Source of the DNA: Flavobacteriales bacterium
GTDB lineage: Bacteria > Bacteroidota > Bacteroidia > Flavobacteriales_C > GCA-002722245
Reading direction: 5' to 3'
DNA length: 64,000 bases
Assembly (NCBI GenBank): GCA_046074525.1
Contig: JBJTOK010000079.1
Location: 9,894-73,893 of the forward strand
Shown here: positions 7,290 through 31,301 of the stretch, one piece after another
Layout: the number at the start of each line of letters is the position of its first letter
Numbering within the stretch: the first letter of the stretch is position 1
The notes under the pieces: model-generated
Database searches by the model: none
Told to the model about the DNA's origin: nothing
The model's input: only the letters and a program-made list of their open reading frames with translations
Program-made: the position numbers and the translations under genes

Positions 7290-7312
7290 GTTAGTTGGAT
7301 TATGGTGGTTGT

Positions 7313-7891: not shown

Positions 7892-7916
7892 ATACCTTTT
7901 TTATTTTTTTTTATGG

Positions 7917-8245: not shown

Positions 8246-8418
8246 TTTTATAATTTTCTTAGTGAATTTTTTTTCTCGCGCATGTCATCCTTCGGGAGTA
8301 CCCTCGGGATGACATACGCGGGGAGAGACAGGGAAAATGTTAGCTAGTACAAACGAAGACTTTTTCTGTACAAATCAATCCCTATCTGCGCGCAGAGCGG
8401 TCCTACCTTAGCTCTATA

Positions 8419-9042: not shown

Positions 9043-9065
9043 TTTTCTTTCCTAACCCGTGTCCC

Positions 9066-9104
9066 GAGGGATTCGTCCGAAAGGAGAATCCCTCTTCTTT
9101 TTAG
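9066..9104 (+). terminator. Intrinsic terminator (gagggattc ... gaatccctc, then ttctttttag).
   Basis: A 9-bp perfect stem plus a T-rich tract sits 24 nt after the stop of 8419..9042. Confidence 0.5.
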
Positions 9105-9127
9105 ATGAAAATTAAAACACAATCAAT

Positions 9128-10099: not shown

Positions 10100-10105
10100 C
10101 TTTTA

Positions 10106-10213
10106 AACCATAAAGGGCACAGAGATCACAGAGTTATCGTGCGCAAAGAAAACAGCTTAAAGCTGCAAGCTCTGTGTTCAAATCGGTCTCTGCGATCTCT
10201 GTGCCTTGTGGTT
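10106..10213. repeat. Intergenic nested-hairpin repeat element (copy A of a 2-copy family, REP/MITE-like). It fills the convergent spacer between the AKR gene and the secreted GH16 gene.
   Basis: The terminal imperfect 27-bp IR is aaccataaagggcacagagatcacagag / ctctgcgatctctgtgccttgtggtt. The internal palindrome is cagcttaaagctg. It shares end motifs and a gcgcaaagaaaacagct core with the 14489..14638 copy, in inverse orientation. Confidence 0.5.
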
Positions 10214-10223
10214 AAGTAAGAAG

Positions 10224-12356: not shown

Positions 12357-12677
12357 GATTTGTTTACTGTATTTGGTTTACAAAAGTTATTAAATTTTGC
12401 CTTAGCGCTTCTACAAGATAGAAATTATTACGTTGGGTTGCCGGGTTCGGTTTTTTGCGATTCAGGTGCTAAAATCGTTCGTAGTTTTTTTGTCTGGCTT
12501 TATTGTCGAGGCCTGTATGACGAATAGTAAAATTCGCTGAGTACTATTTTGCGCCTTTATTTGTACAATTTTAGCCCTCTTTTTCTTCGATAAACGAATA
12601 TTATTGTGTGTGCGGTAACGCTTTTGAGTCTTTTTCCTGTTGGAAGAGGAGAGGTAGTTTTATTTAATATAATATTT

Positions 12678-14477
12678 ATGAGGATTTTAAAAATCACTTT
12701 TGTTTTGTTGTGGCTTTCCACAACTTTGTTTTCACAGAGCACCAATCTGATTACCAACATCGATAACCGTCAGGTGCAAAACCTTAACGGGAAATGGAAA
12801 ATCATTATCGATCCTTATGAAAATGGATTTTACAATTACAGGTATGAGGAAAGTCCGACCGGTTATTTTAAAAATGAAAAACCGAAAACTCCTTCGGATT
12901 TAATAGAATACAATTTCGATGCGTCGGATGAATTGTATGTACCGAGCGACTGGAACTCGCAAATGCAGGAGTTGAAATGGTATGAAGGAACAATATGGTA
13001 CAAGCGCTCTTTTGATTATAAGAAAACCCCGGGAAAAAGAGTATTTGTTTACCTCGGTGCAGTAAATTATAAAGCGCATGTTTACCTCAATGGAAAAAAG
13101 CTGGGTGAACACACAGGAGGATTTACACCTTTTAATTTTGAAGTAACCGATCTGATCAAAGAGAAAGACAATTTCCTGGTGATCAAAGCCGACAACAAAA
13201 GAGCCAAAGATGCGGTGCCTACCTTGAATACTGATTGGTGGAACTATGGTGGCGTAACGCGTGATGTGAAGATTGTAGAGGTAAATACCACTTTTATTCA
13301 GGACACTTATATACAACTGGCTAAAGGCAGTTTGAACCAGATTTCAGGATGGGTAAAACTGAATGGCGACAACAAAGCAAAAAAAATCCGCGTGAGCATT
13401 CCTGAAGCAAAGTGGAGTGCAGATGTTACTACTAACGATGAAGGTGTGGCTGTGATCAGCGGTGATGCAAAACTCAGTTTGTGGTCACCCGAAAACCCGA
13501 AATTGTATCAGGTGCTGGTGATTGCCGGTCAGGATACTTTAACAGATCAGATTGGTTTCCGTTGTGTTGAAACAAAGGATCACGATATTTTACTGAATAA
13601 AAAGTCAGTTTTACTGAAAGGAGTTTGCATTCATGAAGAAGTACCCACACGTGGCGGAAGGGCTTACAGTATGGAAGATGCGCAATTGCTTTTGGGCTGG
13701 GCAAAATCTTTGGGTTGCAATTATGTTCGACTGGCGCATTATCCGCACAATGAAAATATGACGCGCCTGGCTGATAAAATGGGATTGATGGTTTGGTCGG
13801 AAATTCCGGTGTACTGGACTATTGAGTGGAGCAATCCCTTGGTGCTGGAAAATGCGGAAAAGCAATTGACGGAAATGGTGCTGCGCGATAAGAATAAAGC
13901 GTCGGTAGTAATCTGGTCGATGGCTAATGAAACACCATTAAGCGCAGCACGCCTGACTTTCCTGAAAAATTTAATTGAAACCACGCGTCAGTTGGATAAT
14001 ACACGCTTGATTTCAGCAGCACTTGAAGTACACAATTCAAATAAAAATACGATGATGATTGATGATCCGCTGGGCGAATATCTGGATGTATTGGGATGTA
14101 ACGAATACATAGGATGGTACGGCGACAGAAAACCTGAAGAGTGCGATTCCATTTCATGGACCACCAAGTACAACAAGCCTCTGGTGATCAGTGAAACCGG
14201 GGCCGATGCAGCTTATGGTTTTCATGGCGCAACCGATCAGCGTTTTACCGAAGAATACCAGGCCAATTATTTTCAGCATCAATTGCTGATGTTGGGCAGG
14301 ATAGATTTCCTAAGAGGAATTTCTCCGTGGGTATTGGCCGATTTCCGTTCGCCGCGTCGTCCTTTGTCGAATGTTCAGGATTTCTGGAACAGGAAGGGAT
14401 TGATTTCGGAGCATGGTGAAAAGAAGAAAGCATTTTTTGTGGTGAAGAACTTTTATGAGAATTGGAAGTTGAAGTAG
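12678..14477 (+). CDS. Glycoside hydrolase family 2 enzyme (beta-galactosidase/beta-glucuronidase/beta-mannosidase-like). The ORF-track start at 12606 is probably upstream of the real ATG at 12678 (MRILKITFVLLWLSTTLFSQ signal peptide).
   Basis: The GH2 sugar-binding domain pattern is (VFVYLGAVNYKAHVYLNGKKLGEHTGGFTPFNFEVTDL). The TIM-barrel acid/base region is WSMANE. Confidence 0.8.
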   Translation: MRILKITFVLLWLSTTLFSQSTNLITNIDNRQVQNLNGKWKIIIDPYENGFYNYRYEESPTGYFKNEKPKTPSDLIEYNFDASDELYVPSDWNSQMQELKWYEGTIWYKRSFDYKKTPGKRVFVYLGAVNYKAHVYLNGKKLGEHTGGFTPFNFEVTDLIKEKDNFLVIKADNKRAKDAVPTLNTDWWNYGGVTRDVKIVEVNTTFIQDTYIQLAKGSLNQISGWVKLNGDNKAKKIRVSIPEAKWSADVTTNDEGVAVISGDAKLSLWSPENPKLYQVLVIAGQDTLTDQIGFRCVETKDHDILLNKKSVLLKGVCIHEEVPTRGGRAYSMEDAQLLLGWAKSLGCNYVRLAHYPHNENMTRLADKMGLMVWSEIPVYWTIEWSNPLVLENAEKQLTEMVLRDKNKASVVIWSMANETPLSAARLTFLKNLIETTRQLDNTRLISAALEVHNSNKNTMMIDDPLGEYLDVLGCNEYIGWYGDRKPEECDSISWTTKYNKPLVISETGADAAYGFHGATDQRFTEEYQANYFQHQLLMLGRIDFLRGISPWVLADFRSPRRPLSNVQDFWNRKGLISEHGEKKKAFFVVKNFYENWKLK

Positions 14478-14872: not shown

Positions 14873-17800
14873 ATGAAAAACAAATCATCAGCGAAAAGAA
14901 AGTATGGAGGAGTACTGCAAGTATGCTCCATGCGCAGTCTTTTCCTTGCAGCATTATTGACGCTGCTGGGAGGAGTGTCGGCAAATTTGTTGGCGCAATT
15001 GCCAACAGGTTTTGTGGCTAGAAAATTAACCACTAACAACATTAAAGAATGTGTGAAGATTGAACATGCACCTGATGGCCGGATTTTTATGGCCGAGAGA
15101 AGTGGTGCACTCAAAGTGTTGAAAGATGGAGTAGTGACAACCATCACTACAGTGAATACAACAACTGCTGATGAGCAGGGCTTTTTAGGAATGGCTCTTC
15201 ATTCAAGTTTTGCTCAAAATGGTAAGTTGTATGTGTATTATACTTCTGCTGATAAAACCAAACATTATTTAGATGTTATTGTTTTAGATGCAGCAAGCCA
15301 GATAGTTTCAAATACACGTTTAATGGAATTCGATCCGATTTTGGCTGGATACCACAACGGTGGAGCTATGGTGTTTAAAAACGGATATTTGTATTTGTGT
15401 ATTGGCGAAAGTAATACACAACAACAAGCTCAGTTGTTAGATACTTATCGTGGTAAAGTATTGCGTTTGCTGGATGACGGACAACCAGCGCCGGGTAACC
15501 CATATTACAACGTTGCAGGAGCTAGCCGACAGAAACAAAGTATCTGGGCCATTGGTATGCGTAATCCATGGTCGATGAGTATGGATCCTGTTTCAGGAAA
15601 ATTATTTGTTGGTAACGTTGGTGGAGGTTACGAAGAAATTAATGATGTAACTACTCCTGATCCGGCAAAAAATTACGATTATGGTTGGGGTACTGCTGGT
15701 CAATCCGGACCAGGGCAATCATCTGGTACAATCTTGCCAGCTTTTTGCTACAACAAAACCAACTGGTATACACCAACTGCTAATGGTGCTTGGAATGCCC
15801 CAAGCTCGTGTGCCATAACAACAGCATTGTTTTTTAATCCCGCCAACACCAATTATCCGAATGAATACAAAAACAAATTTTATTTCGGCGACTGGTGTCA
15901 TGATTGGCTGCGAAGCATTGATCCAAATAATCCATCGGCAGGTTTTCAGGAACCATTTTTATCAAGTGCTTTACACAGGATCTTAGGATTAAGTGTGGGT
16001 ATTGATGGCAACATCTATTACAGTGAGTACGCCGGGACAGGAAACATCTGGAGGCTCGAATATACTTTATCTAATACACCGATTGTTGTCAACCAGCCAA
16101 CCAGTCAAACGATTTATGCTCAGGATGCGGTATCCTTTAGTGTTTCAGCATCAGGAACCGGACCGTTGAGCTACAAATGGCAAAAAAATGGAGTGGATAT
16201 TCCAGGAGCAACTTCAAGTACATATACTATAGGTTCAGCTGCTGTTTCTGATGGAGGAAATTACAAAGCAATTGTATACAATGCATATGGTGAAGCAATA
16301 AGCAGCGAAGCTGTTTTAACGGTTAAGCCTTACAATGCAATTCCTGTTGCGGATATCATCACACCATTATCAAGTAACACAGCAAGTGTATTGGATGTGA
16401 TCAACTATTCAGGAGATGCTACTGATGCAGAAGATGGAACTTTACCGGCATCAGCTTTTGAATGGGAAGTACGTGTTTTCCATAAAGATTGCGGAGCATG
16501 TGAGCACTGGCATCCTGGTCCTGCAGCAACGGACGGCGTGAAATCAGGATCTTTCATCGCAGATAACGGAGGTGAGACTTCTGCCAACGTTTGGTTCCGT
16601 TTGATTTTAAGAGTGACCGATTCAGAAGGAAGGGTAGGGATTGATTCAGTAGATCTGCAACCAAACAAAGTGGTGTTAACTGTGAACAGCAACCGACCTG
16701 GTTTACAGGTGGCCATTGGATCTTCTTCAAACACGCCATATACAAAAACACAAGTAGTGAATAATGCTACCAACATGACAGCCATTTCTCCGCAAACTTT
16801 TGGTGATACAGTATATACTTTTAGTTCATGGGATCACGGTGGGCCAGCTTCACAAAACTTCCGTGTACCAAATGTAAACACAACTTACAAAGCTAATTTT
16901 ATTGGAACTTATGTTCCAAATACCAACATCGCGCTCAATAAAAAGGCGTATTCCACTTCCAACCAGAATGCAGGAAACAACGCTTCCAAAGCAGTGGATG
17001 GTGTTGCCAACAGCCGTTGGGAAAGTCAGTTCGCCGATCCGCAGGCCCTTGTGGTAAATTTAGGCGCGGTGTACAACATCACCCGCGTGAAAATTACTTG
17101 GGAAAATGCGAAAGCGAAAAACTACGAGTTGCAGACTTCTAACGACTCTATCAACTGGACACCCATCAAGTCGGTGAGCGATAACGCAACAGACATCAAT
17201 GAATGGAGTAACCTGGCTGGCACAGGTAAATTCATTCGTATGTATGGAACTCAAAGAACCACTGCTTATGGCTATTCTATTTATGAGTTTGAAGTGTTTG
17301 GTGCTTTGGCTCCGGGAGGCAACCTTGATCCTGCAGTAAGCATCACTGCTCCGGCGAACAACGCTTCTTTTGCTGCTCCAGCAGCCATCAACATCACAGC
17401 CAATGCATCCGATGCAGATGGTACTGTGAGCAAAGTTGATTTCTACAATGGAACTACATTGCTGGGTACCGACAACACTGCTCCTTATGCTTTTCCATGG
17501 AACAATGTTGCTGCGGGTACTTATACTATTTCTGCCAAGGCAACCGATAACGGAGGTGCGGTAGCTACTTCTTCTATTGCTGTTACAGTAACAGGAGCAA
17601 GCAGCAACAGCAACATCGCACTCGGCAAATACACATCGGCTTCCACAGTGTTGAACGGCAGTGGGAATACTGCTCTCAAAGCAACCGATGGCATCGCTGA
17701 TTCCCGCTGGGAAAGTGAGTTCGCTGATCCGCAGTGGATCATGGTGAACCTTGGCGCCAAGTATGACATCAGCCAGGTGAAAATCAAATGGGAAAATGCA

Positions 17801-19975
17801 ATGGCGAAAACTTACATGCTGCAAACTTCCAATGATTCTATCAACTGGACAGATGTTAAACAAGTGAACGACAATGCTGCTGAATTGAATGACCACACAG
17901 GTTTAACGGCTTCCGGTAAGTATGTTCGCATTTATGGAACAGAAAGAACAACAGGTTACGGTTACTCTATCTTCGAGCTGGAAGTATACGGAACTCCTTC
18001 TGCTGTGACCAATGCGAATCCAACAGTAAGCTTGACAGCACCTGTGAACAATGCTTCGTTTACTGCTCCGGCCAGCATTTCTATCTCGGCTAATGCTGTC
18101 GATGCTGATGGCACTGTAAGCAAAGTTGATTTTTACAATGGTGCTACTTTGCTGGGCACCGATAATACTGCGCCTTACACTTATACCTGGAGCAATGTGG
18201 CTGCCGGAACTTATGCGATCACAGCAAAAGCCACCGACAATCAAAATGCAACTACCACTTCAGCTGCAGTGAATGTAACAGTGAATGCCGTCAGTGGAAC
18301 CAACCTTGCACTGAGCAAAATCATCTGGTCTTCTTCCAATGAAAATGGAGGCACACCTGCAACAGGCGCTAACGACGGCGTAGCGAATACAAGATGGTCA
18401 TCCAAATTCGCCGATCCGCAGTGGATCACTGTTGACCTCGGTGCTTCATACGACATCAACCGCGTAAAAATTACCTGGGAAAATGCGAAAGCAAAAGATT
18501 ACCAAATTCGTATGTCGAATGACACGATCAACTGGACTACTGTTAAACCAGTTTCTGGTAATACGGCTACAGTGAATGATCACACCGGATTGACAGGCTC
18601 TGGTCGCTACTTGAGAATTTACGGTACAGCAAGAACAACTGCTTACGGTTATTCCATCTTTGAACTGGAAGCGTACGGTACATTGGCAGGTGTGAGCAAT
18701 ACTGCTCCAACAGTGAGCCTGACTTCACCAGCCAACAACGCCACGTTTACTTCACCAGCCAGCATCTCTATCGCGGCTACTGCTGCCGATGCTGATGGAA
18801 CAGTAAGTAAAGTTGATTTCTATAATGGTGCTACTTTGCTGGGAACAGCAACTGTTGCTCCTTATACTTTCAGCTGGAACAATGTTGCTGCAGGAACTTA
18901 TACCATCACCGCACAAGCTACCGATAACCAAAACGCAGTAACAACATCTGCTGCAGTTAATATTACGGTGAATACGCCTGCGAATGTTGCTCCGACTGTG
19001 AGTTTGACTTCACCTTCGAACAACGCTGTGTTTACTTCGCCGGCTGCTATCTCCATTGCAGCCAACGCTGCCGATGCTGACGGAACTGTAAGTAAAGTGG
19101 ATTTCTACAATGGCGCTACTTTACTGGGTACCGATAACACTGCTCCTTATACTTTCACCTGGAGTAATGTAGGGACCGGAACTTATGCTATCACCGCAAA
19201 GGCGACCGATAATTCCAATGCAGAAACAACATCTGCTGCTGTAAATGTAACAGTGAATGCTGCTACCAATGTAAATTTGGCTTTGAGTAAACTCACCTGG
19301 GCTTCTTCTATTGAGAATGGTGGTACACAAGCTTACAAAGCAACAGATGGTGTAGCCAATTCAAGATGGTCGTCAAAATTTGCGGATCCACAATGGATCA
19401 CTGTTGACCTTGGTGCTGTTTACGATATCAACCGTGTGAAAATTACCTGGGAAAATGCGAAAGGTAAAAATTACCAGGTGTTGGTTTCCAACGACACTGT
19501 AAACTGGACGTCTGCAAAAACAGTAACTGGTAACACAGCGTTGGTGAATGATCACACTGGTTTAACTTCTACCGGTCGCTATGTTAGAATTTACGGTACT
19601 GCCAGAACAACAGGTTACGGTTATTCTATTTTCGAACTGGAAGTTTATGGAACCTTGTCTCCTGCTCCTGCGCCAATGGCTGCTGAAGAAACAACAACTA
19701 CTGTTGTGGATTTGATTTCAGTAAAAGAAGGAGTAGTGACTTATCCGAATCCTTTCAGCAATGAACTTACAGTGATTGCGCTTTTCCAAACTCCTTCCAT
19801 GGTTAATCTGCTCATCGTAGATGTGAAAGGTTCCGTGGTAGTCGATAGGGATTATGAAAACACCAGCGGTCACTTTGAAAATAAAATCAACGTGGAGAAT
19901 TTACCAGCCGGACAATATGTGCTGAAATTATTTTCGGGTAACGAAGTGTTTACTCAAAAATTAGTGAAGTACTAA
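14873..19975 (+). CDS. Giant (1700 aa) T9SS-secreted surface protein. It has an N-terminal PQQ-type glucose/sorbosone-dehydrogenase-like beta-propeller, an Ig (I-set-like) domain, four [discoidin F5/8 type C + bacterial Ig] modules and a T9SS type-A CTD.
   Basis: The GSDH-like motifs are (GFLGMALH, HNGGAMVFKNGYLYLCIGE, GKVLRLLDDGQPAPGNPY, IWAIGMRNPWSMSMDP, NYDYGWG). The repeated discoidin blocks are (NSRWESQFADPQ...VKITWENAKAKNY...YGYSIYEFEV). The C-terminal Por tail is (YPNPFSNEL...GQYVLKLFSGNEVFTQKLVKY). Confidence 0.8.
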   Translation: MKNKSSAKRKYGGVLQVCSMRSLFLAALLTLLGGVSANLLAQLPTGFVARKLTTNNIKECVKIEHAPDGRIFMAERSGALKVLKDGVVTTITTVNTTTADEQGFLGMALHSSFAQNGKLYVYYTSADKTKHYLDVIVLDAASQIVSNTRLMEFDPILAGYHNGGAMVFKNGYLYLCIGESNTQQQAQLLDTYRGKVLRLLDDGQPAPGNPYYNVAGASRQKQSIWAIGMRNPWSMSMDPVSGKLFVGNVGGGYEEINDVTTPDPAKNYDYGWGTAGQSGPGQSSGTILPAFCYNKTNWYTPTANGAWNAPSSCAITTALFFNPANTNYPNEYKNKFYFGDWCHDWLRSIDPNNPSAGFQEPFLSSALHRILGLSVGIDGNIYYSEYAGTGNIWRLEYTLSNTPIVVNQPTSQTIYAQDAVSFSVSASGTGPLSYKWQKNGVDIPGATSSTYTIGSAAVSDGGNYKAIVYNAYGEAISSEAVLTVKPYNAIPVADIITPLSSNTASVLDVINYSGDATDAEDGTLPASAFEWEVRVFHKDCGACEHWHPGPAATDGVKSGSFIADNGGETSANVWFRLILRVTDSEGRVGIDSVDLQPNKVVLTVNSNRPGLQVAIGSSSNTPYTKTQVVNNATNMTAISPQTFGDTVYTFSSWDHGGPASQNFRVPNVNTTYKANFIGTYVPNTNIALNKKAYSTSNQNAGNNASKAVDGVANSRWESQFADPQALVVNLGAVYNITRVKITWENAKAKNYELQTSNDSINWTPIKSVSDNATDINEWSNLAGTGKFIRMYGTQRTTAYGYSIYEFEVFGALAPGGNLDPAVSITAPANNASFAAPAAINITANASDADGTVSKVDFYNGTTLLGTDNTAPYAFPWNNVAAGTYTISAKATDNGGAVATSSIAVTVTGASSNSNIALGKYTSASTVLNGSGNTALKATDGIADSRWESEFADPQWIMVNLGAKYDISQVKIKWENAMAKTYMLQTSNDSINWTDVKQVNDNAAELNDHTGLTASGKYVRIYGTERTTGYGYSIFELEVYGTPSAVTNANPTVSLTAPVNNASFTAPASISISANAVDADGTVSKVDFYNGATLLGTDNTAPYTYTWSNVAAGTYAITAKATDNQNATTTSAAVNVTVNAVSGTNLALSKIIWSSSNENGGTPATGANDGVANTRWSSKFADPQWITVDLGASYDINRVKITWENAKAKDYQIRMSNDTINWTTVKPVSGNTATVNDHTGLTGSGRYLRIYGTARTTAYGYSIFELEAYGTLAGVSNTAPTVSLTSPANNATFTSPASISIAATAADADGTVSKVDFYNGATLLGTATVAPYTFSWNNVAAGTYTITAQATDNQNAVTTSAAVNITVNTPANVAPTVSLTSPSNNAVFTSPAAISIAANAADADGTVSKVDFYNGATLLGTDNTAPYTFTWSNVGTGTYAITAKATDNSNAETTSAAVNVTVNAATNVNLALSKLTWASSIENGGTQAYKATDGVANSRWSSKFADPQWITVDLGAVYDINRVKITWENAKGKNYQVLVSNDTVNWTSAKTVTGNTALVNDHTGLTSTGRYVRIYGTARTTGYGYSIFELEVYGTLSPAPAPMAAEETTTTVVDLISVKEGVVTYPNPFSNELTVIALFQTPSMVNLLIVDVKGSVVVDRDYENTSGHFENKINVENLPAGQYVLKLFSGNEVFTQKLVKY

Positions 19976-20017
19976 GAGGTTCAGTAATGTGAATTTTTAG
20001 AAACGTTTTATCATAAG

Positions 20018-20052
20018 ATAGCCCCTCTTTGCAGAGGGGCTATTTTTTTTTA
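20018..20052 (+). terminator. Intrinsic terminator after giant gene 1 (atagcccctct ttgc agaggggctat + T9).
   Basis: An 11-bp perfect stem, a 4-nt loop and a U-tract lie 43 nt after the stop. Confidence 0.6.
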
Positions 20053-20301
20053 TCCCTCTTGCGAGGCTTTATTTTACAGGTATTTCAGGATTGTGTGAAT
20101 GATATTGTACTGTTTGTGAATAATTGAATGCCACTTTTTTTGACCCCATGAGAACGATTGTGCTCCTGTTTGCGAATGATTTGTTCCAGTTGTACGACAT
20201 CTGCGAACGTAGCTTTGTGGGGAAGATTCTCGTGAGTCATTGTTTTCCGCATAAACACGACCCAAGAGAATGGGTATAGTAAATAACTAAAAACTAAAAG
20301 A

Positions 20302-23300
20302 ATGAAAAACAAATCATCCACAAAAAGAAAGTATGGAGGAACACTGCAAGTGTGCTCTATGCGTAGTCTTTTCCTTGTGTCGCTATTGATGCTGCTGGGA
20401 GGAGTATCCCAAAGTTTGTTTGCACAATTGCCGGAAGGCTTTGTGAAAAACAAATTAACCAACAACAACATCGCCGATGCAGTAAAAATGGAACACGCTG
20501 CTGACGGCAGAATTTTTATTGCCGAACTGGGAGGTAAAATTAAAGTGCTGCAAAACGGTGTGGTATCACTTGTGCATAGTGTTGCCACCAATACCAATGA
20601 TGAGCAGGGTTTGTTAGGTATTGCTCTTCATACCAATTTTGCCACCAATGGTAAATTGTATTTGTATTACACCGCTCCCGACAAATCAAAACATTTTTTG
20701 GATGTGATTGTTGTGGATGGCGATAACCAGGTAGTGTCATCCACCCGTGTTATGGAATTTGATCCTATATTATTCGGCTACCATAACGGTGGTGCAATGC
20801 TGTTTAAAAACGGTTATTTGTATTTGTGTATCGGCGAAAGTAATGCTCCGCAGTACGCTAATGATCTTACTACTTACCGTGGTAAAATTTTGCGTTTGCT
20901 GGATGACGGTCAGCCTGCGCCTGGCAACCCTTACTACGATACTCCGGGCGCCAACCGCCAGCAAAAAAGCATCTGGGCAACAGGAATGCGTAATCCATGG
21001 TCGATGAGTATGGATCCTACCACCCAAAAAATATATGTGGGTAACGTAGGTGGAACTTACGAAGAGATCAACGATGTAACAGCTCCCGATGCTGCGAGAA
21101 ATTACAATTACGGTTGGGCGGCTTCCGGTAAATCCGGATCGGAACAGGATGCCAATACTATCCTTCCTGTGTTTTGTTATAGCGGCGCAGAGGCGATTCA
21201 AAAATGGCAGTCGCCCACTACACAAGGCGACTGGATACAAGGCTCCTGTGCAATCACTACGGGAACATTTTTCAATCCTGCCATCACCAATTATCCGGCG
21301 GAATACAGAAACAGATTTTATTTTTCCGACTGGTGTCAGCTATGGATCAGAAGCATCAATCCTGCGAATACCACCACGGGTTTTCAAACCAATTTTGCTG
21401 ATCAGGGTTTCAACAGAATTTTGGGGTTGAGCACAGGTATCGACGGAAACCTCTATTACATTGAGCATGCAGGCGGAGGAAATATTTACCGACTGGAATA
21501 CACCTTGTCTAATCAGCCTGTCATCGTAAACAATCCATCTTCTCAAACGGTGTATGCCCAGGATGCAGTTTCTTTTTCGGTAGCTTCATCAGGTGCCAAT
21601 CCTAAGTCTTATCAATGGCAAAAAAACGGTACTAATATTTCAGGTGCAACAGCGAGCACTTATGCTATCTCTTCTGCAGCAGAAGCCAATGCAGGAAATT
21701 ACAGAGTAATTGTGAGCAACAGCTATGGTGCTGATACCAGTGATGCAGCGGTGTTGACCGTATTGCCTTACAATGCTATTCCGGTAGCGCACATCACATC
21801 ACCTGCTTCTACAGTAACGGCAAGTGTTTTGGATGTGGTGAACTATTCAGGAACAGGATCAGATGCCGAAGATGGAATATTGCCGGCTTCTGCATTCAAT
21901 TGGGAAGTGCGTGTTTTCCACAAAGATTGCGGAACCTGTGAGCACTGGCATCCTGGTCCGAATGCACCCGACGGTGTGACTTCAGGATCTTTCACAGCCG
22001 ACAACGGAGGAGAATCTTCTTCCAACGTTTGGTTTCGTTTGATTTTAAGAGTAACGGATTCAGAGGGAAGAGTGGGGACGGATTCAGTAGATCTTCAACC
22101 CAACAAAGTGGTATTGACTGTGAACAGCAGCAAACCAGGTTTGCAGGTGGTGATCGGATCTTCTTCCATTACGCCCTACAACAAAACACAGGTAGTGAAC
22201 AATGCCATTAATATTACTGCTATCACACCGCAAACTATTGGTGATACAGTGTATACCTTCAGTTCATGGGATCATGGTGGAGTGGCTTCACAAAGCATCC
22301 GAGTGCCTAATGTGAACACTACTTACAAAGCTAATTTTACTGCTGCTTACGTAAGCAACACCAATCATGCTTTGAATAAAATTGCCGGTTCATCATCTAA
22401 TCAGGGTGGCAATACTGCTAATAAAGCGGTAGATGGAGATTTCAATTCCCGCTGGGAAAGTCAGTCTTCCGATCCGCAATTCCTGGTGGTGAATTTAGGT
22501 GCAGTTTACGACATCAATCGCGTGAAAATTTACTGGGAAAATGCAAAAGCGAAAAATTATCTGGTGGAAACTTCTATGGACTCTGTGGTGTGGGATAAGA
22601 TGAAAGAGGTGACCGATAATGCAACGGATATCAATGAGTGGAGCAACTTATCTGGTACAGGAAAGTACGTTAGAATTTTCGGAACGGAAAGAACAACCAA
22701 CTACGGCTATTCAATTTTTGAATTGCAGGTATTTGGTGCTTTGCATCAGGGAGGTTCTAATACTTTGCCTACAGTGAGCATCACTGCGCCATCCAACAAT
22801 GCCAATTTTTCAACACCAGCCGAAATCAATATTACAGCCAATGCTGCCGATGCAGACGGTACTGTAAGCAAGGTTGATTTTTACAATGGTGCTACTTTGC
22901 TTGGAACCGATAACACTGCTCCTTATGCGTATACCTGGAGCAATGTTGCTGCGGGAACTTATACCATCACAGCAAAAGCAACCGATAATCAGAATGCAGT
23001 AAAGACTTCTTCTGCTGTGACTGTAGTAGTAGGTGCGGTAGCGACTAACGTAGCGCTGAACAAAACTACTTATGTGTCTTCTTCTTTGGGAGGAAATTCC
23101 AAAGCGAATGCAGTAGATGGTAACTTGAATTCCCGCTGGGAAAGTGCTTTCTCTGATCCGCAATACATCACTGTGGATCTCGGTGCTGTTTACGACATCA
23201 GTCGCGTACACATCGTGTGGGAAAATGCGAAAGCGAAGAACTACCGTGTTCTGGCTTCTAACGATACATTGAGCTGGCCGGATACTTTGAAAACAGTGGT

Positions 23301-25314
23301 GAACAACACGCAGGACGACAACAACTGGACTGGTTTGTCATCCAGCCGCCGCTTTGTTAGAATTTACGGAACAGAAAGAACGACGAACTATGGCTATTCT
23401 ATTTTTGAACTGGAAGTTTATGGCGTGCCTGCATCCGGCGGAAATGCGAATCCGACAGTAAGCTTGACCGCTCCGGCAAACAACGCTTCGTTCAATGCTC
23501 CGGCTACTATCAATATCACCGCCAACGCAGCTGATTCGGATGGTACAATAAGCAAAGTGGATTTCTACAATGGTACTACCTTATTGGGAACCGACAACGC
23601 TGCACCTTATGCTTACACCTGGACTGGCGTTGCTGCCGGGACTTATGCGATCACGGCAAAAGCTACCGACAACCAGAATGCAGTAACTACTTCTTCTGCG
23701 GTGAATGTTACCGTGAGCTCACCAAACACTGTGAACCTGGCGTTGAACAAACCAACTTACTCTTCTTCGGATGAAAATGCCGGCACCCCTGCAAGCAACG
23801 CAACCGATGGGAATGGCAACTCCCGCTGGTCGAGTGAGTTTTCTGATCCACAACACCTCATTGTGAATTTAGGCGCTGTGTATGACATCAGCCGAATTAA
23901 AATCAATTGGGAAAATGCAAAAGCGAAGAAGTACAATTTGCTGGTATCGGTAGATAGCTTGGTTTGGGACACTGTGAAAACAGTAAATAACAATGAACAA
24001 AATGAGAATGACTGGACAGTGAGCGGCACTGGTCAATACGTGAAAATGTATGGCACCGAAAGAACCACTCCTTACGGTTATTCTATTTTTGAATTAGAAG
24101 TGTATGGCGCTGCTGCCAATGCGCAGCCAACTGTGAGTATCACATCCCCTGCTAACAACGCCGGTTTCCTTTCTCCTGCAACGATCAGCATTACAGCTAA
24201 TGCAGGGGATGCCGACGGAAGTGTGAGTCAGGTTGATTTCTACAACGGCGCTACTTTGCTGGGCAGCGACAATACTGCTCCATATTCTTATACCTGGACC
24301 AACGTTGCTGTTGGATCATATGCCATCACAGCTAAGGCTACCGATAACAACGGTGCAGTGACAACGTCATCTGCCGTAAATTTTACGGTAAGTGTACCTG
24401 TTAACCTTGCGCTGAACAAGCCAACGTATTCTTCCACTGATGAGAATGGCGGAACCCCTGCAGCTAGCGCTACCGACGGTAATGCGAACTCAAGATGGTC
24501 GAGTGAGTTTTCTGATCCGCAATACCTCATCGTGAATTTAGGCACTGTGTACGATATCAGCCGCATTAAAATCAACTGGGAAAATGCAAAAGCGAAGAAA
24601 TACGATTTGCTGGTGTCTGTTGACAGCTTGAGCTGGGATACCTTGAAAACAGTACTCAACAACACCCAGAACAACAATGACTGGACGGTGAGTGGTACAG
24701 GAAAATACGTGAAAATGTATGGTGCTGAAAGAACTACGCCTTATGGTTATTCCATCTTCGAATTCGAAGTGTACGGAACCGAACATCAGGAGGTAGGAGG
24801 TTCTAACACAAATCCAACAGTGAGCATTACATCTCCTTCTAATGGTGCAATCTTCACTGCTCCGGCAAGCATCACTATCACAGCGAATGCTGCCGATAGC
24901 GATGGAAGCGTAAGCAAAGTAGATTTCTACAACGGTACTACTTTATTGGGTACCGATAATACTGCACCTTATTCTTACACCTGGAACAACGTGGCTGTAG
25001 GTAACTACGCTATTGTTGCCAAGGCTACAGATGACCAGAATGCAGTGAATGCTTCTTCAATTGTGAATGTAGTGGTGAATTCTCCTAATACTGTTAACCT
25101 TGCGCTGAACAAGCCAACCTATTCTTCTACGGATGAGAATGGCGGAAACCTGGCAGTAAATGCTACCGATGGTAACAACAACTCCCGCTGGTCGAGTCAG
25201 TTTGCTGATCCGCAACACCTAACGGACATAACTATGGCTTCAATTTCAGCAATTGTAAATACGGTTTGTACTTTGATGGAAGCAATGGAGTGGGAATTAT
25301 GTTCACCGACATGA
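20302..25314 (+). CDS. Second giant T9SS-type surface protein paralog (GSDH-like propeller, Ig domain, five discoidin/Ig modules). It is truncated: the fifth discoidin domain breaks at about 25220, the frame then runs 31 aberrant codons to a stop, and there is no CTD.
   Basis: The first 60 nt are almost identical to gene 1 (MKNKSSxKRKYGGxLQVCSMRSLFL). The same domain order is seen. The last repeat reads ..NSRWSSQFADPQHL and then departs from the repeat consensus (expected IVNLGAVYDI..). Confidence 0.7.
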   Translation: MKNKSSTKRKYGGTLQVCSMRSLFLVSLLMLLGGVSQSLFAQLPEGFVKNKLTNNNIADAVKMEHAADGRIFIAELGGKIKVLQNGVVSLVHSVATNTNDEQGLLGIALHTNFATNGKLYLYYTAPDKSKHFLDVIVVDGDNQVVSSTRVMEFDPILFGYHNGGAMLFKNGYLYLCIGESNAPQYANDLTTYRGKILRLLDDGQPAPGNPYYDTPGANRQQKSIWATGMRNPWSMSMDPTTQKIYVGNVGGTYEEINDVTAPDAARNYNYGWAASGKSGSEQDANTILPVFCYSGAEAIQKWQSPTTQGDWIQGSCAITTGTFFNPAITNYPAEYRNRFYFSDWCQLWIRSINPANTTTGFQTNFADQGFNRILGLSTGIDGNLYYIEHAGGGNIYRLEYTLSNQPVIVNNPSSQTVYAQDAVSFSVASSGANPKSYQWQKNGTNISGATASTYAISSAAEANAGNYRVIVSNSYGADTSDAAVLTVLPYNAIPVAHITSPASTVTASVLDVVNYSGTGSDAEDGILPASAFNWEVRVFHKDCGTCEHWHPGPNAPDGVTSGSFTADNGGESSSNVWFRLILRVTDSEGRVGTDSVDLQPNKVVLTVNSSKPGLQVVIGSSSITPYNKTQVVNNAINITAITPQTIGDTVYTFSSWDHGGVASQSIRVPNVNTTYKANFTAAYVSNTNHALNKIAGSSSNQGGNTANKAVDGDFNSRWESQSSDPQFLVVNLGAVYDINRVKIYWENAKAKNYLVETSMDSVVWDKMKEVTDNATDINEWSNLSGTGKYVRIFGTERTTNYGYSIFELQVFGALHQGGSNTLPTVSITAPSNNANFSTPAEINITANAADADGTVSKVDFYNGATLLGTDNTAPYAYTWSNVAAGTYTITAKATDNQNAVKTSSAVTVVVGAVATNVALNKTTYVSSSLGGNSKANAVDGNLNSRWESAFSDPQYITVDLGAVYDISRVHIVWENAKAKNYRVLASNDTLSWPDTLKTVVNNTQDDNNWTGLSSSRRFVRIYGTERTTNYGYSIFELEVYGVPASGGNANPTVSLTAPANNASFNAPATINITANAADSDGTISKVDFYNGTTLLGTDNAAPYAYTWTGVAAGTYAITAKATDNQNAVTTSSAVNVTVSSPNTVNLALNKPTYSSSDENAGTPASNATDGNGNSRWSSEFSDPQHLIVNLGAVYDISRIKINWENAKAKKYNLLVSVDSLVWDTVKTVNNNEQNENDWTVSGTGQYVKMYGTERTTPYGYSIFELEVYGAAANAQPTVSITSPANNAGFLSPATISITANAGDADGSVSQVDFYNGATLLGSDNTAPYSYTWTNVAVGSYAITAKATDNNGAVTTSSAVNFTVSVPVNLALNKPTYSSTDENGGTPAASATDGNANSRWSSEFSDPQYLIVNLGTVYDISRIKINWENAKAKKYDLLVSVDSLSWDTLKTVLNNTQNNNDWTVSGTGKYVKMYGAERTTPYGYSIFEFEVYGTEHQEVGGSNTNPTVSITSPSNGAIFTAPASITITANAADSDGSVSKVDFYNGTTLLGTDNTAPYSYTWNNVAVGNYAIVAKATDDQNAVNASSIVNVVVNSPNTVNLALNKPTYSSTDENGGNLAVNATDGNNNSRWSSQFADPQHLTDITMASISAIVNTVCTLMEAMEWELCSPT

Positions 25315-28300
25315 AGATCACCGGCTGTGAATACGGTGTGTATGCAGCAGCAAATACAGGCGGTGTTCTGCAGTTGTATAAATGGAATATTTCGGCCACC
25401 GATGCTGCTATTTTTTCCGATAAAACTTCAGGCACTAAAATACTTTTGCAGGAATCCGCCATCGCTTCAGGAAAAGTGCAATTGCAAGGTGGAACCTTGC
25501 TTGCTACTGATAACGATTTCAATAACACGGCGCCGCAAATCCAGTTTGAATACAACTCCCGAGGTAACCTCACCGGCAATCGTTTTAAAAATGCAGTAAA
25601 CATTTCCGAAAAATCTGTTTTCCTCAACCAGATTGATCACACTCCGGTAAGCTCTATTAAACTTCCTGCGTATTATGAATTTATACCGCAATCGAAAAAA
25701 CCTTCACGTAATGTAATGTACAATGTGTTGAATTATGGTGTTACTGCGGGAACCCGCGATGCTATTCCTGCAGGAGATGCAACAACAGGAATTCAAAATG
25801 CACTCAATCAGGCGAAGAATGATGGTGGTGGAATTGTTTATCTTCCGCCGGGGCATTACAGAATCAATGGTTCTCTCACGATTCCCACAGGTGTGGAATT
25901 AAAAGGTTCGGTGGATATAGGGGAGTTCCCTTTGGGGCCTGGATCCATCCTTGAAATTTATGGAAACAAAGGAAATGAAAATGGAGCTTCTCCTGTGATT
26001 TTACAGCAGGGTAGCGGTTTACGTGGTGTGGTGTTCAATTATCCCGACCAGGTTTTTTGTACTGTACTTCCCAATGCGGTGTTGAAATTTCCTTATTCGG
26101 TTCAGGTGCAAGGCAGTGATGCCTATATCGTAAATGTTGGATTCCGTGCAGCTTACAAAGCAGTAGATTTATTTTCCTACAAAAGTGATCGCTTCTATCT
26201 CGATTTCCTTACGGGACATGTATTCAATGAAGGTGCTAAAGTGGGCGCCGCCTCTGCTGATGGTATAATCGCAAATATGCAGTTCAATACCATCGCTTAC
26301 AACTGCGGTGATGAATCGAAATTTGGCGGATGGCCTAATTCGCTTCGCTCGCCATGTTCGGGTGATGCTACTAAAAATCCTTACGACTACAACGCTAAAT
26401 ATCTCGACTTCCTTATCGTGGGCAATGCGCCGGATATCATGCTGTACAACGATTTTAATTATGATGCGAATCATGGCTTGATTTTGCAGGATGGTGCTTC
26501 GGGAACTGCCATCGGTTTAGGTTTGGATGGCGATCGTACCGGAATTTTAGTGGATGGAAATGCCAATTTCTCTTTCATCAATACACAGGATGTATCTCTT
26601 AATTATGATGCCTTGGGAGGTGAACAATCCAGCTATCTGAAAACGACTTCCAACTTCAATGCTGGTTCCATTAATCTCTTCAGTTGCGATTATTGGGGAC
26701 AAGCTACCAGCAGTGGTATTGTGATGGATGGCGCAGGAACAGTGAATCTGCAATCATCAAATTTTGAGAGTCCCGGCAGCCAGTCTTTTGCCCAAGTCAA
26801 TAACGGAACGTTGAATATCAACAACTCGGTAGTGAACCCAAAAGATCCTCTGGTGAACGGTACGCATCTGTCGGGTGTTAATATCGTGGGTTCCGATGTA
26901 ACTCCTTATACCATCAATACGAACTTGCTTGGCAATTACGATAACAATATAGGCACCGCAAAACCTTCGCCAACCAGTTCTCTCAGCAGGACAGGTTGGA
27001 TTGCTACATCGTCAAGGAATGTTAATTCGGGACGTGTTGCTCAAAATGGAATTGATGGAGATGCTAATACCAGCTGGAGCAGTGGCTGGCAAAACGATGG
27101 CGCAGCCATCTGGTACCAGGTAGATATGCTTGTGCCGCAGACTTTCAATGAAGTGATTCTGGATTACAGCGGAAGTCCGAACGACGGTCCTGCATCTTAT
27201 ACTTTCTCAGTATCCAATGATGGCGTTAACTGGACGCAGGTAGCCTCCGGCACAGGAAATAATATGATGACCATTATTTCCTTTCCTGAAACTACAGCAC
27301 GTTATATCCGCATGGATAAGCCTGCCAATGCAAGTAAAGCCAATTTCCTGGCGATTCATGAATTGTATGTATTCAATGTAAAAGCTGCCGCAGGCAATCT
27401 GGTGGCGGTGCCGATGAAAAATCCCTTGTACCACCAGTTCACATCGCCATTGTATGGTTCTGCGGGAACAGGAAATATGTACACTGCCGATCCTTCTGCA
27501 CACGTATGGGCCGATGGTCGTTTGTATGTTTATGCATCACACGATATGGAGCCAGCACAAGGGTGCGATAGAATGGATCGCTATCATGTTTTCTCTACCG
27601 ATGATATGACCAACTGGGTAGATCATGGTGAAATTCTCAGCGCGAGTCAGGTTTCCTGGGGGCGCGCTGAAGGTGGTTTCATGTGGGCACCTGATTGCGC
27701 ATACAATCCGGCCAATCAGACTTACTATTTTTATTATCCTCATCCAAGCGGTACCGATTGGGGTGCTACCTGGAAAATAGGCGTGGCTACTTCTAAGGAA
27801 CCTGCAGCTAATTTTACCGATCAGGGCTATATCACAGGAATGTCATCTCTCATTGATCCTTGCGTTTTTGTCGACGATGACGGTCAGCCTTATATTTATC
27901 AGGGTGGCGGTGGAACCTGTATGGGGGGTAAACTCGATAAAAATGACTGGACCAAATTGGATGGCGCCATGCAGCCTATGACGGGTTTGGTCGATTTTCA
28001 CGAAGCTACATGGGTACACAAATACAATGGAAAATATTATTTGTCGCACGCCGATAACCACGGCGTTGATGGCAATCAGCTGAAATATGCTGTGAGCAAC
28101 AGTCCGCTCGGACCATGGACCGACATGGGTGTGCTGATGTACGCCACGGGTTGCGATACGCATCATGGTTCAATTGTGGAATACAAAGGTCAGTGGTGGT
28201 CTTTCTATCACACCAGCAATTTCTCAGGCGAATACAACCTGCGTTCGGTATGTGCAGATAAGCTTTACTACAATAATGATGGTAGCATTCAACCAGTAAA

Positions 28301-29519
28301 CAACTGGGGTACTGCTTTCAAGAGCAATGTGGTGGCGGTTACCAACAACACTACAGATGTTGCTCTCACTGTGGAAGCCGAGGATTTCAATAATGGTGGT
28401 TCACATTATGGTTACTGGGATAAAACCGATGCCAATTCAGGAGGCAATAATTCCCGTTCAGGAGAAGGAGTGGATATTGAAACCCGTGGTAATGTGGTGG
28501 ATATAGGATGGATTGAGAATGGCGAATGGTTGAGGTATACGGTGAATGTTACCAAGGCAGGCTTGTACGATATCGATTTCACTGTGGCTGCAGGCAATAC
28601 GGGAGGAAAATTCCATTTGAGCGTGAATGGCACTAATTTATCGGGCGACCTAACTGTTCCTAATACAGGAGATTGGGGGAATTGGACTACTGTTACGGCT
28701 CTCAATATTCCTTTGCAGGCGGGCGAGCAGTACATTGATTTGCGTTTCAATGGCGGATTCAATCTGGATAAGTTTCAGTTCCGCAAATCAGCACCATACC
28801 AGGGCACGGCGTATAATGGTCCGCACAACGTTCCCGGAACTTTTGAAGCCGAAGATTATGACAATGGTGGAACAGGAGTGGCTTATTATGACAGCGATGT
28901 CGCCAACAACAGCGGTGCTTACAGAACAACAGAAGGCGTAGATCTGGAAACCTCCAACGGTAGTACGCACATCAGCTGGTCGAATAGTGGTGAGTGGACC
29001 AAGTACACTATTGTTGTGGCTACTGATGGCACTTATGAAGTGCAGATTCCTGTGTCTACGGGCAATGGCGCAGCAGGGACCTTGTCGCTCACTTTCGATG
29101 ATGTGTATACTGTACCTGTCGCCAGCATCAATACCGGCAACTGGAACACCTATCAATCACTTACGATCAAAGACATTCAGCTTACGGCCGGAACGCACGT
29201 AATGAAGCTGAATATTGGCGGAAACATCAATGTAGATCAATTCACTTTTACGAAAAGCATTACCACAGCAATGCCGGAAGCGACTGCGCAGCATCACATC
29301 AGCATTTATCCTAACCCTTCGGCCGATGGTATTTTTAATATCAAAGCCACGCAGCAGGGGCAGCTGATCATCAGTGATGTGGCAGGCAAAATGGTGCTGA
29401 GCGAAATAGTGGCTGAGCCGGGAAACATTGATTTGTCGGGCCGTGCGTCGGGTATTTATATTGCTACGTTTATTACCGGAGAGCAGACTTACAGGTTTAA
29501 GCTGATGGTGAATAAATAA
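25266..29519 (+). CDS. 5'-truncated composite glycoside hydrolase, possibly a pseudogene or gene fusion. It has a Pectate_lyase_3-type right-handed beta-helix (GH55-like exo-beta-1,3-glucanase architecture), a discoidin/CBM32-like domain, a GH43-like five-bladed propeller, two CBM6-like domains and a T9SS type-A CTD. The coding frame is open from 25209 (after a TGA) with no signal peptide. The ORF-track start is a TTG.
   Basis: The beta-helix start motif is YNVLNYGVTAGTRDA..DATTGIQNALNQAKNDGGGIVYLPPGHYRING. The discoidin block is NTSWSS...YIRMD. GH43 motifs are (ADPSAHVWADGRLYVYASHD, WAPDCAY, DPCVFVDDDG). Two modules of TVEAEDFNNGG...LDKFQF / TFEAEDYDNGG...VDQFTF are present. The Por tail is (ISIYPNPSADGIF...YRFKLMVNK). 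Confidence 0.6.
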   Translation: MYFDGSNGVGIMFTDMKITGCEYGVYAAANTGGVLQLYKWNISATDAAIFSDKTSGTKILLQESAIASGKVQLQGGTLLATDNDFNNTAPQIQFEYNSRGNLTGNRFKNAVNISEKSVFLNQIDHTPVSSIKLPAYYEFIPQSKKPSRNVMYNVLNYGVTAGTRDAIPAGDATTGIQNALNQAKNDGGGIVYLPPGHYRINGSLTIPTGVELKGSVDIGEFPLGPGSILEIYGNKGNENGASPVILQQGSGLRGVVFNYPDQVFCTVLPNAVLKFPYSVQVQGSDAYIVNVGFRAAYKAVDLFSYKSDRFYLDFLTGHVFNEGAKVGAASADGIIANMQFNTIAYNCGDESKFGGWPNSLRSPCSGDATKNPYDYNAKYLDFLIVGNAPDIMLYNDFNYDANHGLILQDGASGTAIGLGLDGDRTGILVDGNANFSFINTQDVSLNYDALGGEQSSYLKTTSNFNAGSINLFSCDYWGQATSSGIVMDGAGTVNLQSSNFESPGSQSFAQVNNGTLNINNSVVNPKDPLVNGTHLSGVNIVGSDVTPYTINTNLLGNYDNNIGTAKPSPTSSLSRTGWIATSSRNVNSGRVAQNGIDGDANTSWSSGWQNDGAAIWYQVDMLVPQTFNEVILDYSGSPNDGPASYTFSVSNDGVNWTQVASGTGNNMMTIISFPETTARYIRMDKPANASKANFLAIHELYVFNVKAAAGNLVAVPMKNPLYHQFTSPLYGSAGTGNMYTADPSAHVWADGRLYVYASHDMEPAQGCDRMDRYHVFSTDDMTNWVDHGEILSASQVSWGRAEGGFMWAPDCAYNPANQTYYFYYPHPSGTDWGATWKIGVATSKEPAANFTDQGYITGMSSLIDPCVFVDDDGQPYIYQGGGGTCMGGKLDKNDWTKLDGAMQPMTGLVDFHEATWVHKYNGKYYLSHADNHGVDGNQLKYAVSNSPLGPWTDMGVLMYATGCDTHHGSIVEYKGQWWSFYHTSNFSGEYNLRSVCADKLYYNNDGSIQPVNNWGTAFKSNVVAVTNNTTDVALTVEAEDFNNGGSHYGYWDKTDANSGGNNSRSGEGVDIETRGNVVDIGWIENGEWLRYTVNVTKAGLYDIDFTVAAGNTGGKFHLSVNGTNLSGDLTVPNTGDWGNWTTVTALNIPLQAGEQYIDLRFNGGFNLDKFQFRKSAPYQGTAYNGPHNVPGTFEAEDYDNGGTGVAYYDSDVANNSGAYRTTEGVDLETSNGSTHISWSNSGEWTKYTIVVATDGTYEVQIPVSTGNGAAGTLSLTFDDVYTVPVASINTGNWNTYQSLTIKDIQLTAGTHVMKLNIGGNINVDQFTFTKSITTAMPEATAQHHISIYPNPSADGIFNIKATQQGQLIISDVAGKMVLSEIVAEPGNIDLSGRASGIYIATFITGEQTYRFKLMVNK

Positions 29520-29693: not shown

Positions 29694-31301
29694 GTGAAAT
29701 ATAAGTTTTTATTGATTTGTTGTTTCGCCTTTACTTTCGTGGCCTTTGCCAGTGAAGACGAAGATACCATGTATGTCCAGCTGGACAGTCTTTTGGAACA
29801 AAAACCACAACTTGTAAAAGATAAGCAACAGCGTATTCAATCGCTGGCCCGTATGTTGTTCGATAGCGAGCGCCGAAAAGACGTGCAGAGCCAATTTCAA
29901 TTTTGCGCCAAGCTTTTTGAAGAATACAAATCCTTCCAGTACGATTCGGCTTTTAAGTACACCGACCGTATGCTTAAGCTTGCCTACGTCCTCAATGATC
30001 CCGCGAAAATCAACAACGCAAAAGTCAATTTTAGTTTTATTTTCCTTTCATCTGGGATGTTTAAGGAAGCCCTGGATACTTTGTCTACAGTTGATGCGAT
30101 GGCGCTGCCTGTAGCGGAAAGAATCAATTTCTATAAAGTTTTTGCCCGCACTTATTTTGATCTTTCGGATTTCTCGCAAAGTCAGCAATACAGTCAGTCT
30201 TATAATAATAAAGGCGATGAGTATGTCACCCGTGCTCTCGATCTTTCGGAGAAAGCGTCGGCAGAGTACCTTTTCCTTAAGGCTTGGAAATACATGCGTA
30301 TCCGCAACATTGAAATGGCCATTAAAACCTACCAGAAGCTTCTCTTGTATTATAATCTCACCCAACACGAATATGCTATTGTAACTTCCAGTTTGAGCTT
30401 CATGTACATGCTCGATAACAACCAGGAGAAGCACAAGGAATTCCTGATTAAAGCTGCCATTGCGGATATCCGGGGATGTGTGTTTGAAACAGTGGCATTG
30501 CGCAATCTTGCGGAAATTGTATACAAGGAAGGGAATTATGAGCGTGCTTACCGCTACATCAAAATTGCCAATGATGATGCTTATGCCTATGGCGCAAAAT
30601 TCCGCCAGGTGCAGGTGGCTTATCTCCTGCCGATGATAGAAGCTGCCCAAATGAATGAAGTGGAAAGCAAAAGAAGAAATCTCATCGTTTTCGCGCTCTT
30701 TGCGAGTTTAGTGAGCGTATTGATCTTTATTTTGTACTTCATAGTTTACCGCAACAACATTAAACTTAAACTGGCTAAACAAAGTTTGGTGGAGTCACAT
30801 GTGCATTTACAGGTACTCAATAATACCCTTCAGGATGCCAATAAAATCAAGGAGGAATATATCGGTCACTTCTTCACAGCGATTTCAGACTACATAGATA
30901 AATTGGATAAACTCAAGAATTCCATCGACAGGAAAATTACGCAAAACAGGACTGATCAGATACGTGATGTGGTGAAGCAAATTAATCTTAAGGCGGAAAG
31001 GGAGGAACTATATGGTAATTTCGATAGGATTTTCCTCAAAATATTTCCTGATTTCATCCCTAAATTCAATAGCTTCCTCAATGAAGATGCAAAATATGTA
31101 ATTGAGGAGAATGCCCCGTTGCCGCCTGAATTGAGAATTTTTGCTCTGATTCGTTTAGGGATCAATGACAATGAGAAAATTGCGCAGTTTTTAGGATATT
31201 CCATCAATACGATTTATACCTATAAAACGAGATTGAAGAACAAAACCATTGTCCCTAATGAAAAGCTGGAAGTGCGGGTGATGGAAATCAAAGCGAATTG
31301 A
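29694..31301 (+). CDS. Membrane-anchored one-component regulator candidate. It has a signal peptide, an extracytoplasmic TPR-like region, a single TM helix and a cytoplasmic coiled-coil plus C-terminal helix-turn-helix (DUF6377-like architecture).
   Basis: The signal is MKYKFLLICCFAFTFVAFA and the TM segment is LIVFALFASLVSVLIFILYFIVY. The C-terminal LuxR/HTH-like segment is ELRIFALIRLGINDNEKIAQFLGYSINTIYTYKTRLKNK. Confidence 0.5.
   Translation: MKYKFLLICCFAFTFVAFASEDEDTMYVQLDSLLEQKPQLVKDKQQRIQSLARMLFDSERRKDVQSQFQFCAKLFEEYKSFQYDSAFKYTDRMLKLAYVLNDPAKINNAKVNFSFIFLSSGMFKEALDTLSTVDAMALPVAERINFYKVFARTYFDLSDFSQSQQYSQSYNNKGDEYVTRALDLSEKASAEYLFLKAWKYMRIRNIEMAIKTYQKLLLYYNLTQHEYAIVTSSLSFMYMLDNNQEKHKEFLIKAAIADIRGCVFETVALRNLAEIVYKEGNYERAYRYIKIANDDAYAYGAKFRQVQVAYLLPMIEAAQMNEVESKRRNLIVFALFASLVSVLIFILYFIVYRNNIKLKLAKQSLVESHVHLQVLNNTLQDANKIKEEYIGHFFTAISDYIDKLDKLKNSIDRKITQNRTDQIRDVVKQINLKAEREELYGNFDRIFLKIFPDFIPKFNSFLNEDAKYVIEENAPLPPELRIFALIRLGINDNEKIAQFLGYSINTIYTYKTRLKNKTIVPNEKLEVRVMEIKAN

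Follow-up and report, generated by a model that had tools for sequence, protein, structure and literature searches.

A probable short-direct-repeat deletion joining two truncated genes for secreted carbohydrate enzymes in a Flavobacteriales genome

We describe here a junction near position 25220 in a 64,000-nucleotide (nt) stretch of the Flavobacteriales contig JBJTOK010000079.1 (the whole stretch is called the window below), at which a giant gene for a secreted protein with discoidin repeats, gene 2, breaks off and is followed, out of frame, by a beta-helix/GH43 enzyme gene that lacks its beginning. From the comparison of both sides with intact homologs we propose that the junction is probably the scar of a deletion between short direct repeats in two same-strand neighbouring genes for secreted carbohydrate enzymes, both of which were left truncated and out of frame by it. 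The coordinates of the features are collected in Table 1.

On the left side of the join the comparison relies on gene 1, the intact tandem paralog, which served as the reference for the parts that gene 2 has lost. Gene 1 comprises a signal-peptide-like leader, a glucose/sorbosone-dehydrogenase (GSDH) beta-propeller, an Ig domain, alternating discoidin (F5/8C) and Big_7 units, and a C-terminal sorting domain of the type IX secretion system (T9SS), which Pfam recognises as Por_Secre_tail (PF18962, residues 1624-1698, E=3.2e-12); a strong, terminator-like hairpin lies 3' of it at 20015-20046. Gene 2 is 73-82% identical to gene 1 in nucleotides across long stretches and has a leader that is, by inspection, typical of a Sec signal peptide. 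Its fifth discoidin unit is 84% identical to repeat 4 (24398-24527), with ..SRWSSQFADPQH(L) as the last residues, and in the DNA alignment with the four paralogous repeats it runs without gaps and well conserved through ..GATCCGCAACACCT (25207-25220), beyond which it is unrelated to them. With the gene 1 tail as a tblastn query, the match in repeat 5 is limited to residues 2-39 of ~125 and ends at 25224. A breakpoint at about 25220 in a truncated fifth discoidin had been proposed in a first-pass annotation of this DNA; the alignment places it there, and it speaks against the repeat being in fact complete. Past the join the gene 2 frame reads TDITMASISAIVNTVCTLMEAMEWELCSPT, that is 30 unrelated codons (31, as noted before, when the L codon is counted) up to a TGA at 25312-25314, and this tail is the sequence of the beta-helix gene in the wrong frame. 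No Pfam match to PF18962 or another T9SS sorting domain is present in gene 2, unlike in gene 1, and by tblastn a C-terminal domain of the gene 1 type occurs within the window in gene 1 only.

Apart from the join, genes 1 and 2 (14873-25220 together) are old tandem duplicates with different repeat orders. Gene 1 has two successive Big_7 units (18706-19290) ahead of its last discoidin, and gene 2 shows a strict alternation of discoidin and Big_7 and a fifth discoidin in addition, which indicates a gain or loss of repeat units after the duplication.

On the right side, the -1 frame is open from directly behind a TGA at 25206-25208 over 1436 codons to 29519, in agreement with the 1400+ amino acids (aa) reported for it earlier. 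Pfam assigns to this frame a PF12708 beta-helix and, above its thresholds, F5/8C, GH43 (PF04616, residues 759-1026, E=2.5e-34, a score of 119 bits where 32 is the cutoff), two CBM6 modules and the Por_Secre_tail sorting domain (PF18962, E=4.9e-9). The candidate in-frame starts are a TTG at 25266, a GTG at 25290 and ATG codons at 25299 and 25311, and by inspection no hydrophobic leader follows any of them, so the earlier statement that the frame has neither a signal peptide nor a plausible start holds.

What the gene looks like when complete can be seen in its closest relative from a scan of one genome per species, a Flavobacteriales metagenome-assembled genome (JAHEZL010000023.1, locus L002, 83% identity). 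There, L002:9896-15097 forms a single open reading frame (ORF) of 1733 aa, which begins with the leader MNYKFTHPTFLVLFSLFTFHLSSAQ, typical by inspection, has two PF12708 stretches and keeps the module order of the window through to the T9SS domain. The window frame follows this ortholog collinearly from residue 299/300 to its end at 1733, the two being 83% identical, and in tblastx the homology between the window and L002 begins exactly at 25209 (L002:10790) and runs on through the downstream DUF6377 gene, whose counterpart (L002:15274-16881) is also a DUF6377 gene of 535 aa with ~83% identity. Compared with the ortholog, the window gene is without a start codon, a signal peptide and 298 N-terminal codons; it is this intact upstream part that the first-pass annotation had suggested seeking at an orthologous locus, and L002 supplies it, signal peptide included. 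In the 64-kb window there is no orthologous copy of the 299 N-terminal residues of the ortholog or of the DNA upstream of them, the sole match of the missing part being a paralogous one, with 35% identity, to beta-helix domain 2.

Other full-length relatives, obtained by a protein search (P0012 with 66% identity, P0034, P0001 and P0005, all of ~950 aa or more) have an N-terminal leader and a complete domain 1 as well. In an AlphaFold2 model of P0005 (pLDDT 87, pTM 0.85) two beta-strand-rich beta-helix domains are predicted, at residues ~40-450 and ~475-880, and it is within the first of them, near residue 308, that the break falls. The truncated frame thus retains the last third of beta-helix domain 1 and everything from domain 2 onward. 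When the truncated gene is compared with the L002 ortholog over 1433 codons, the ratio of nonsynonymous to synonymous substitution rates (dN/dS) comes to 0.06 and is low along the whole length. The beta-helix/GH43 gene has therefore been under purifying selection for nearly all of its divergence, which would fit a recent event, with the ratio unable to date the deletion because dS is saturated (~1.9).

At the join itself the two genes have 8-9 nt in common, GCAACACC(T). The sequence spanning it in the window is GCAACACCT, in codons ..GCT GAT CCG CAA CAC CTA ACG GAC AT.., of which G CAA CAC CT is the shared part. At this position the sequence is GATCCaCAACACCTCAT in discoidin repeat 3 and GATCCGCAAtACCTCAT in repeat 4 (consensus GATCCrCAAyACCTC), each with one mismatch to the 8-9-mer (aCAACACCT in repeat 3, GCAAtACCT in repeat 4), and the L002 ortholog reads ACTGCAACACCAAACGG / GCAACACCA at the homologous spot, where the exact 8-mer is present in the context GAAACTGCAACACCaAACGGACAC. 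Such an overlap, of which a single copy is kept, is the classical mark of a deletion between short direct repeats. Divided into codons, the shared stretch is cc-G CAA CAC CT- for the discoidin but GCA ACA CCT for the beta-helix gene and, since its phase differs between the two genes, any crossover inside the 8-9-mer gives an offset of -1. Both flanks are gapless against their homologs right up to the 8-9-mer; therefore no base is missing or extra, and the frame break is intrinsic to the event and not a 1-nt error. With both flanks on one strand a simple inversion can be excluded, and the missing 5' part was not found elsewhere in the window, where it would have been a sign of an insertion or a translocation.

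Table 1. Features at the join and in its neighbourhood (positions in the window)
Feature	Position	Strand	Remarks
GH16 gene	6387-7289	-	window neighbourhood
GH16 gene with PKD and T9SS tail	10224-12356	-	window neighbourhood
GH2 gene	12606-14477	+	window neighbourhood
Gene 1	14873-19975	+	1700 aa; intact tandem paralog of gene 2 (translation)
Gene 2, full frame	20302-25314	+	1670 aa (translation)
Gene 2, homologous part	20302-25220	+	signal peptide, GSDH, Ig, 4 complete F5/8C alternating with Big_7, ~40 residues of a fifth discoidin
Truncated fifth discoidin repeat	25091-25220	+	repeat search, DNA alignment, tblastn of the gene 1 tail
5'-truncated beta-helix/GH43 gene (ORF3 frame)	25209-29519	+	1436 open codons; homology to the ortholog from 25212 (L002:10793)
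Junction microhomology GCAACACC(T)	25212-25220	+	8-9 nt, common to discoidin repeats and beta-helix gene; crossover inside
Out-of-frame tail of gene 2	25221-25314	+	L codon completed, 30 unrelated codons, TGA 25312-25314
ATGA overlap	25311-25314	+	TGA of the gene 2 frame (25312-25314) overlaps in-frame ATG (25311-25313) of the truncated gene
DUF6377 gene	29694-31301	+	535 aa; downstream neighbour, anchors synteny with L002

We propose the following course of events. Ancestral gene 2 would have had the same kind of end as gene 1, where a linker and a T9SS C-terminal sorting domain follow a complete last discoidin, and next to it, behind an intergenic spacer, there would have stood a complete gene of ~1733 aa coding for a signal peptide, two tandem PF12708 beta-helices, F5/8C, GH43, two CBM6 modules and a T9SS C-terminal domain. 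The stretch of 8-9 nt would have been present in both genes by chance, and at these short direct repeats the intervening DNA would have been lost, with one copy retained, through replication slippage or template switching in a RecA-independent recombination. At a minimum gene 2 would have lost ~0.57 kb (~191 codons, judged from gene 1) and the downstream gene 0.89 kb (298 codons), in addition to the spacer, so that the deletion may be estimated at roughly 1.5-2 kb or more. If the two genes were once direct neighbours, and if the 326 nt that separate genes 1 and 2 and the 493 nt ahead of the L002 ortholog are taken as guide values for the spacer, the estimate becomes ~1.8-2 kb. Gene 2 would have kept its promoter and signal peptide, with 30 nonsense codons at its end and no sorting domain, and its product, if made, would reach the periplasm, where T9SS secretion or anchoring would fail; the downstream gene would be left with no credible start, no signal peptide and one third of its first beta-helix. 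Both truncated genes are most likely recent pseudogenes. The first-pass annotation had likewise seen in this place a deletion or recombination junction that leaves two truncated genes, a view which gains support from the 298 codons missing in comparison with L002, the sorting domain missing in comparison with gene 1, and the microhomology.

Deletions of this kind, RecA-independent and between short direct repeats within a few kb, are a well-documented class (PMC7145654). The window shares with them a same-orientation stretch of 8-9 nt of which one copy is kept, the absence of the intervening DNA and flanks that are collinear with intact homologs. No mechanistic difference is visible; the deletion size and the parental repeats are reconstructed here. 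The lacI deletions of Albertini et al. 1982 are reportedly the classical examples of such events.

Several points weigh against the deletion. The junction rests on one consensus sequence, and the closest relative found is only 83% identical. For the parental sequences of the 8-9-mer, paralogs and the ortholog stand in for the true ancestor. In L002 the ortholog is preceded by a different region, in which giant discoidin genes are absent over 10 kb, and therefore we infer, and do not observe, that gene 2 and the beta-helix gene were once adjacent. Both truncated frames are still fully open, and a dN/dS of 0.06 cannot tell a recent pseudogene from a gene that is still selected. No sister strain with the ancestral allele came up in the genome contig scan, which gave one relative (L002), or in the metagenome contig scan, which gave only relatives at 43% identity or less; taken together, the closest loci are 83% (L002), 66% (L001) and at most 43% identical. 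Exact-protein look-ups for gene 2 (with two alternative starts) and one neighbouring gene returned no record.

The join might also be an artefact of a chimeric read or fragment, or of an assembler error, with both genes intact in the organism. Chimeric library molecules tend to arise at short microhomologies, the region upstream is repeat-rich, and next to the single consensus sequence no independent assembly was found. Against this, the sharing of 8-9 nt is far under any assembler overlap or k-mer, and the right flank is unique in the window: between 25215 and 25700 the longest exact word common with the rest of it is 12 nt, and the junction itself shares at most 11 nt exactly. In the left flank the longest exact repeat measures 28 nt and is 130 nt away from the join on its upstream side, the repeats there are only 62-84% identical, and composition is continuous, with a GC content of 0.44 on either side and no compositional break across the join that would point to a cross-organism chimera. 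After a misjoin, moreover, the displaced pieces would normally be expected close by, but the window does not contain the missing 5' part. Repeat-mediated misassembly, which had been named as the alternative in the first-pass annotation, does not agree well with such flanks, and we regard an artefact as unlikely and take the event to have occurred in the organism rather than in the library or the assembly. A larger rearrangement, either a translocation or a tandem duplication exceeding 39 kb, with intact copies of one or both genes elsewhere in the genome, would explain the join too, as duplication junctions likewise connect same-strand sequence at microhomology; and with upstream synteny to L002 not conserved the two genes need not have been neighbours. 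There is, however, no second copy of the flanking sequence within 25 kb upstream or 39 kb downstream, and a deletion is the simplest event for this topology, so that we hold such a rearrangement to be quite improbable.

It would be different if a functional product were still made, either as a fusion, through a 1-nt error or a programmed -1 frameshift, or as a leaderless protein of 1402 aa that arises by termination and reinitiation at the ATGA overlap. The length of the fusion, earlier given as about 3080 aa, would be exactly 1639+1436 = 3075 aa, and both frames are indeed open together over 25209-25314, an in-frame ATG shares bases with the gene 2 stop, and nothing interrupts the 1436 codons of the downstream frame, which has the low dN/dS given above. 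But no X XXY YYZ heptamer is found in phase in 25198-25314, as was already suspected when no obvious slippery site had been seen, and the overlap 25209-25314 has no homopolymer of 4 nt or more. The single chimeric protein resulting from a 1-nt error finds no support either: the flanks are gapless, the offset is set by the register of the 8-9-mer, and the join splits a discoidin beta-sandwich and a beta-helix in mid-domain, while the intact architecture of the family is known from L002 and other relatives. We consider any such functional product very improbable. The ATGA overlap has the classic layout of translational coupling, here probably a coincidental one, and is the sole conceivable route of re-initiation for the truncated gene. 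With a T9SS sorting domain but no Sec signal peptide, a reinitiated protein would not be secretable. That it is made from the ATG as a leaderless cytoplasmic protein (partial beta-helix, GH43, CBM6), translationally coupled to a gene 2 product retained in the periplasm, seems to us more improbable still; if it were true, the deletion would have rewired the localisation of two secreted carbohydrate-active enzymes instead of merely destroying them.

Handling of a cargo protein by T9SS depends on a Sec signal peptide as well as on a C-terminal domain. Gene 1 and the L002 ortholog resemble the T9SS cargo of Bacteroidota in carrying both the N-terminal Sec signal peptide and Por_Secre_tail, and in being multi-domain carbohydrate-binding or -degrading proteins of the surface or secreted. 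The two genes at the join depart from this, gene 2 having the signal peptide only and the downstream gene the C-terminal domain only, so that neither has both signals.

The beta-helix part had been labelled GH55-like in the first-pass annotation, and this stands for the architecture, not for the family. Two tandem right-handed beta-helices, as in GH55 beta-1,3-glucanases (PDB 3eqn, 5m5z), are also present in the P0005 model and the L002 ortholog, GH16 genes in the neighbourhood are a further point in common, and the top Foldseek matches of that model are GH55 structures (5m5z, 3eqn, 8jhh; E ~1e-9); the TM-scores, however, are 0.30-0.37 with 12-13% identity and a root-mean-square deviation above 12 A, and phmmer of the beta-helix region against the PDB gave 0 matches at E<=0.01. 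The GH55 structures also differ in being without the F5/8C, GH43, two CBM6 and C-terminal domain modules of the beta-helix/GH43 gene family. The label is partly justified by this predicted and distant fold resemblance, and only "GH55-like architecture" seems appropriate.

The main value of these observations is for annotation and quality control. The appropriate label for both ORFs is truncated gene or pseudogene, and neither giant fusion protein nor TTG-initiated enzyme. If real, the event offers a clean natural case of deletion between short direct repeats, from a part of a Bacteroidota genome devoted to polysaccharide degradation. As a mutational scar it is ordinary and of a known kind, not a new kind of system, and the junction raises no new biological question. 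The event also fits a pattern of repeated inactivation in this accessory beta-helix enzyme family, which is hit by a deletion in the window, in Coprobacter by a nonsense codon and in L001 by a frame break.

The latter two cases came to light among the relatives of the beta-helix/GH43 gene. In L001:10001-15678, on a Logan contig of SRR29082287, a 66%-identical homolog is split into called genes of 605 aa and 1287 aa owing to a frame change near L001:11686-11818, which may be either an assembly indel or a further, independent inactivation in the beta-helix/GH43 family. In L006:1665-4934, on a Coprobacter fastidiosus contig (ENA ERZ18698215 NODE_2864), a homologous PF12708 tandem-beta-helix gene has an in-frame TAA at L006:2436-2438 and reads ..FYNCIY*TGTVIMLLKNDWSYT.., where its relatives read ..WIYENGTGIVMRRNDWSYT..; the TAA leaves ORFs of 257 aa and 826 aa, and an intact-looking paralog of 1101 aa lies just downstream. 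There are several distinct clusters of 826-aa proteins (P0014, P0015, P0018, P0019), which suggests that the interruption is common to diverged strains. These 826-aa Coprobacter homologs, which begin ~30 residues before the window break, were considered as a natural short form of the enzyme and rejected, their N-terminus being an internal Met after the in-frame TAA in a full-length gene.

Further upstream in the window, three large ORFs on the minus strand (1687-6373) have no Pfam match at E<=1e-5. The neighbourhood between them and the giant genes (6387-14477), with its two GH16 genes and one GH2 gene, is beta-glucan themed.

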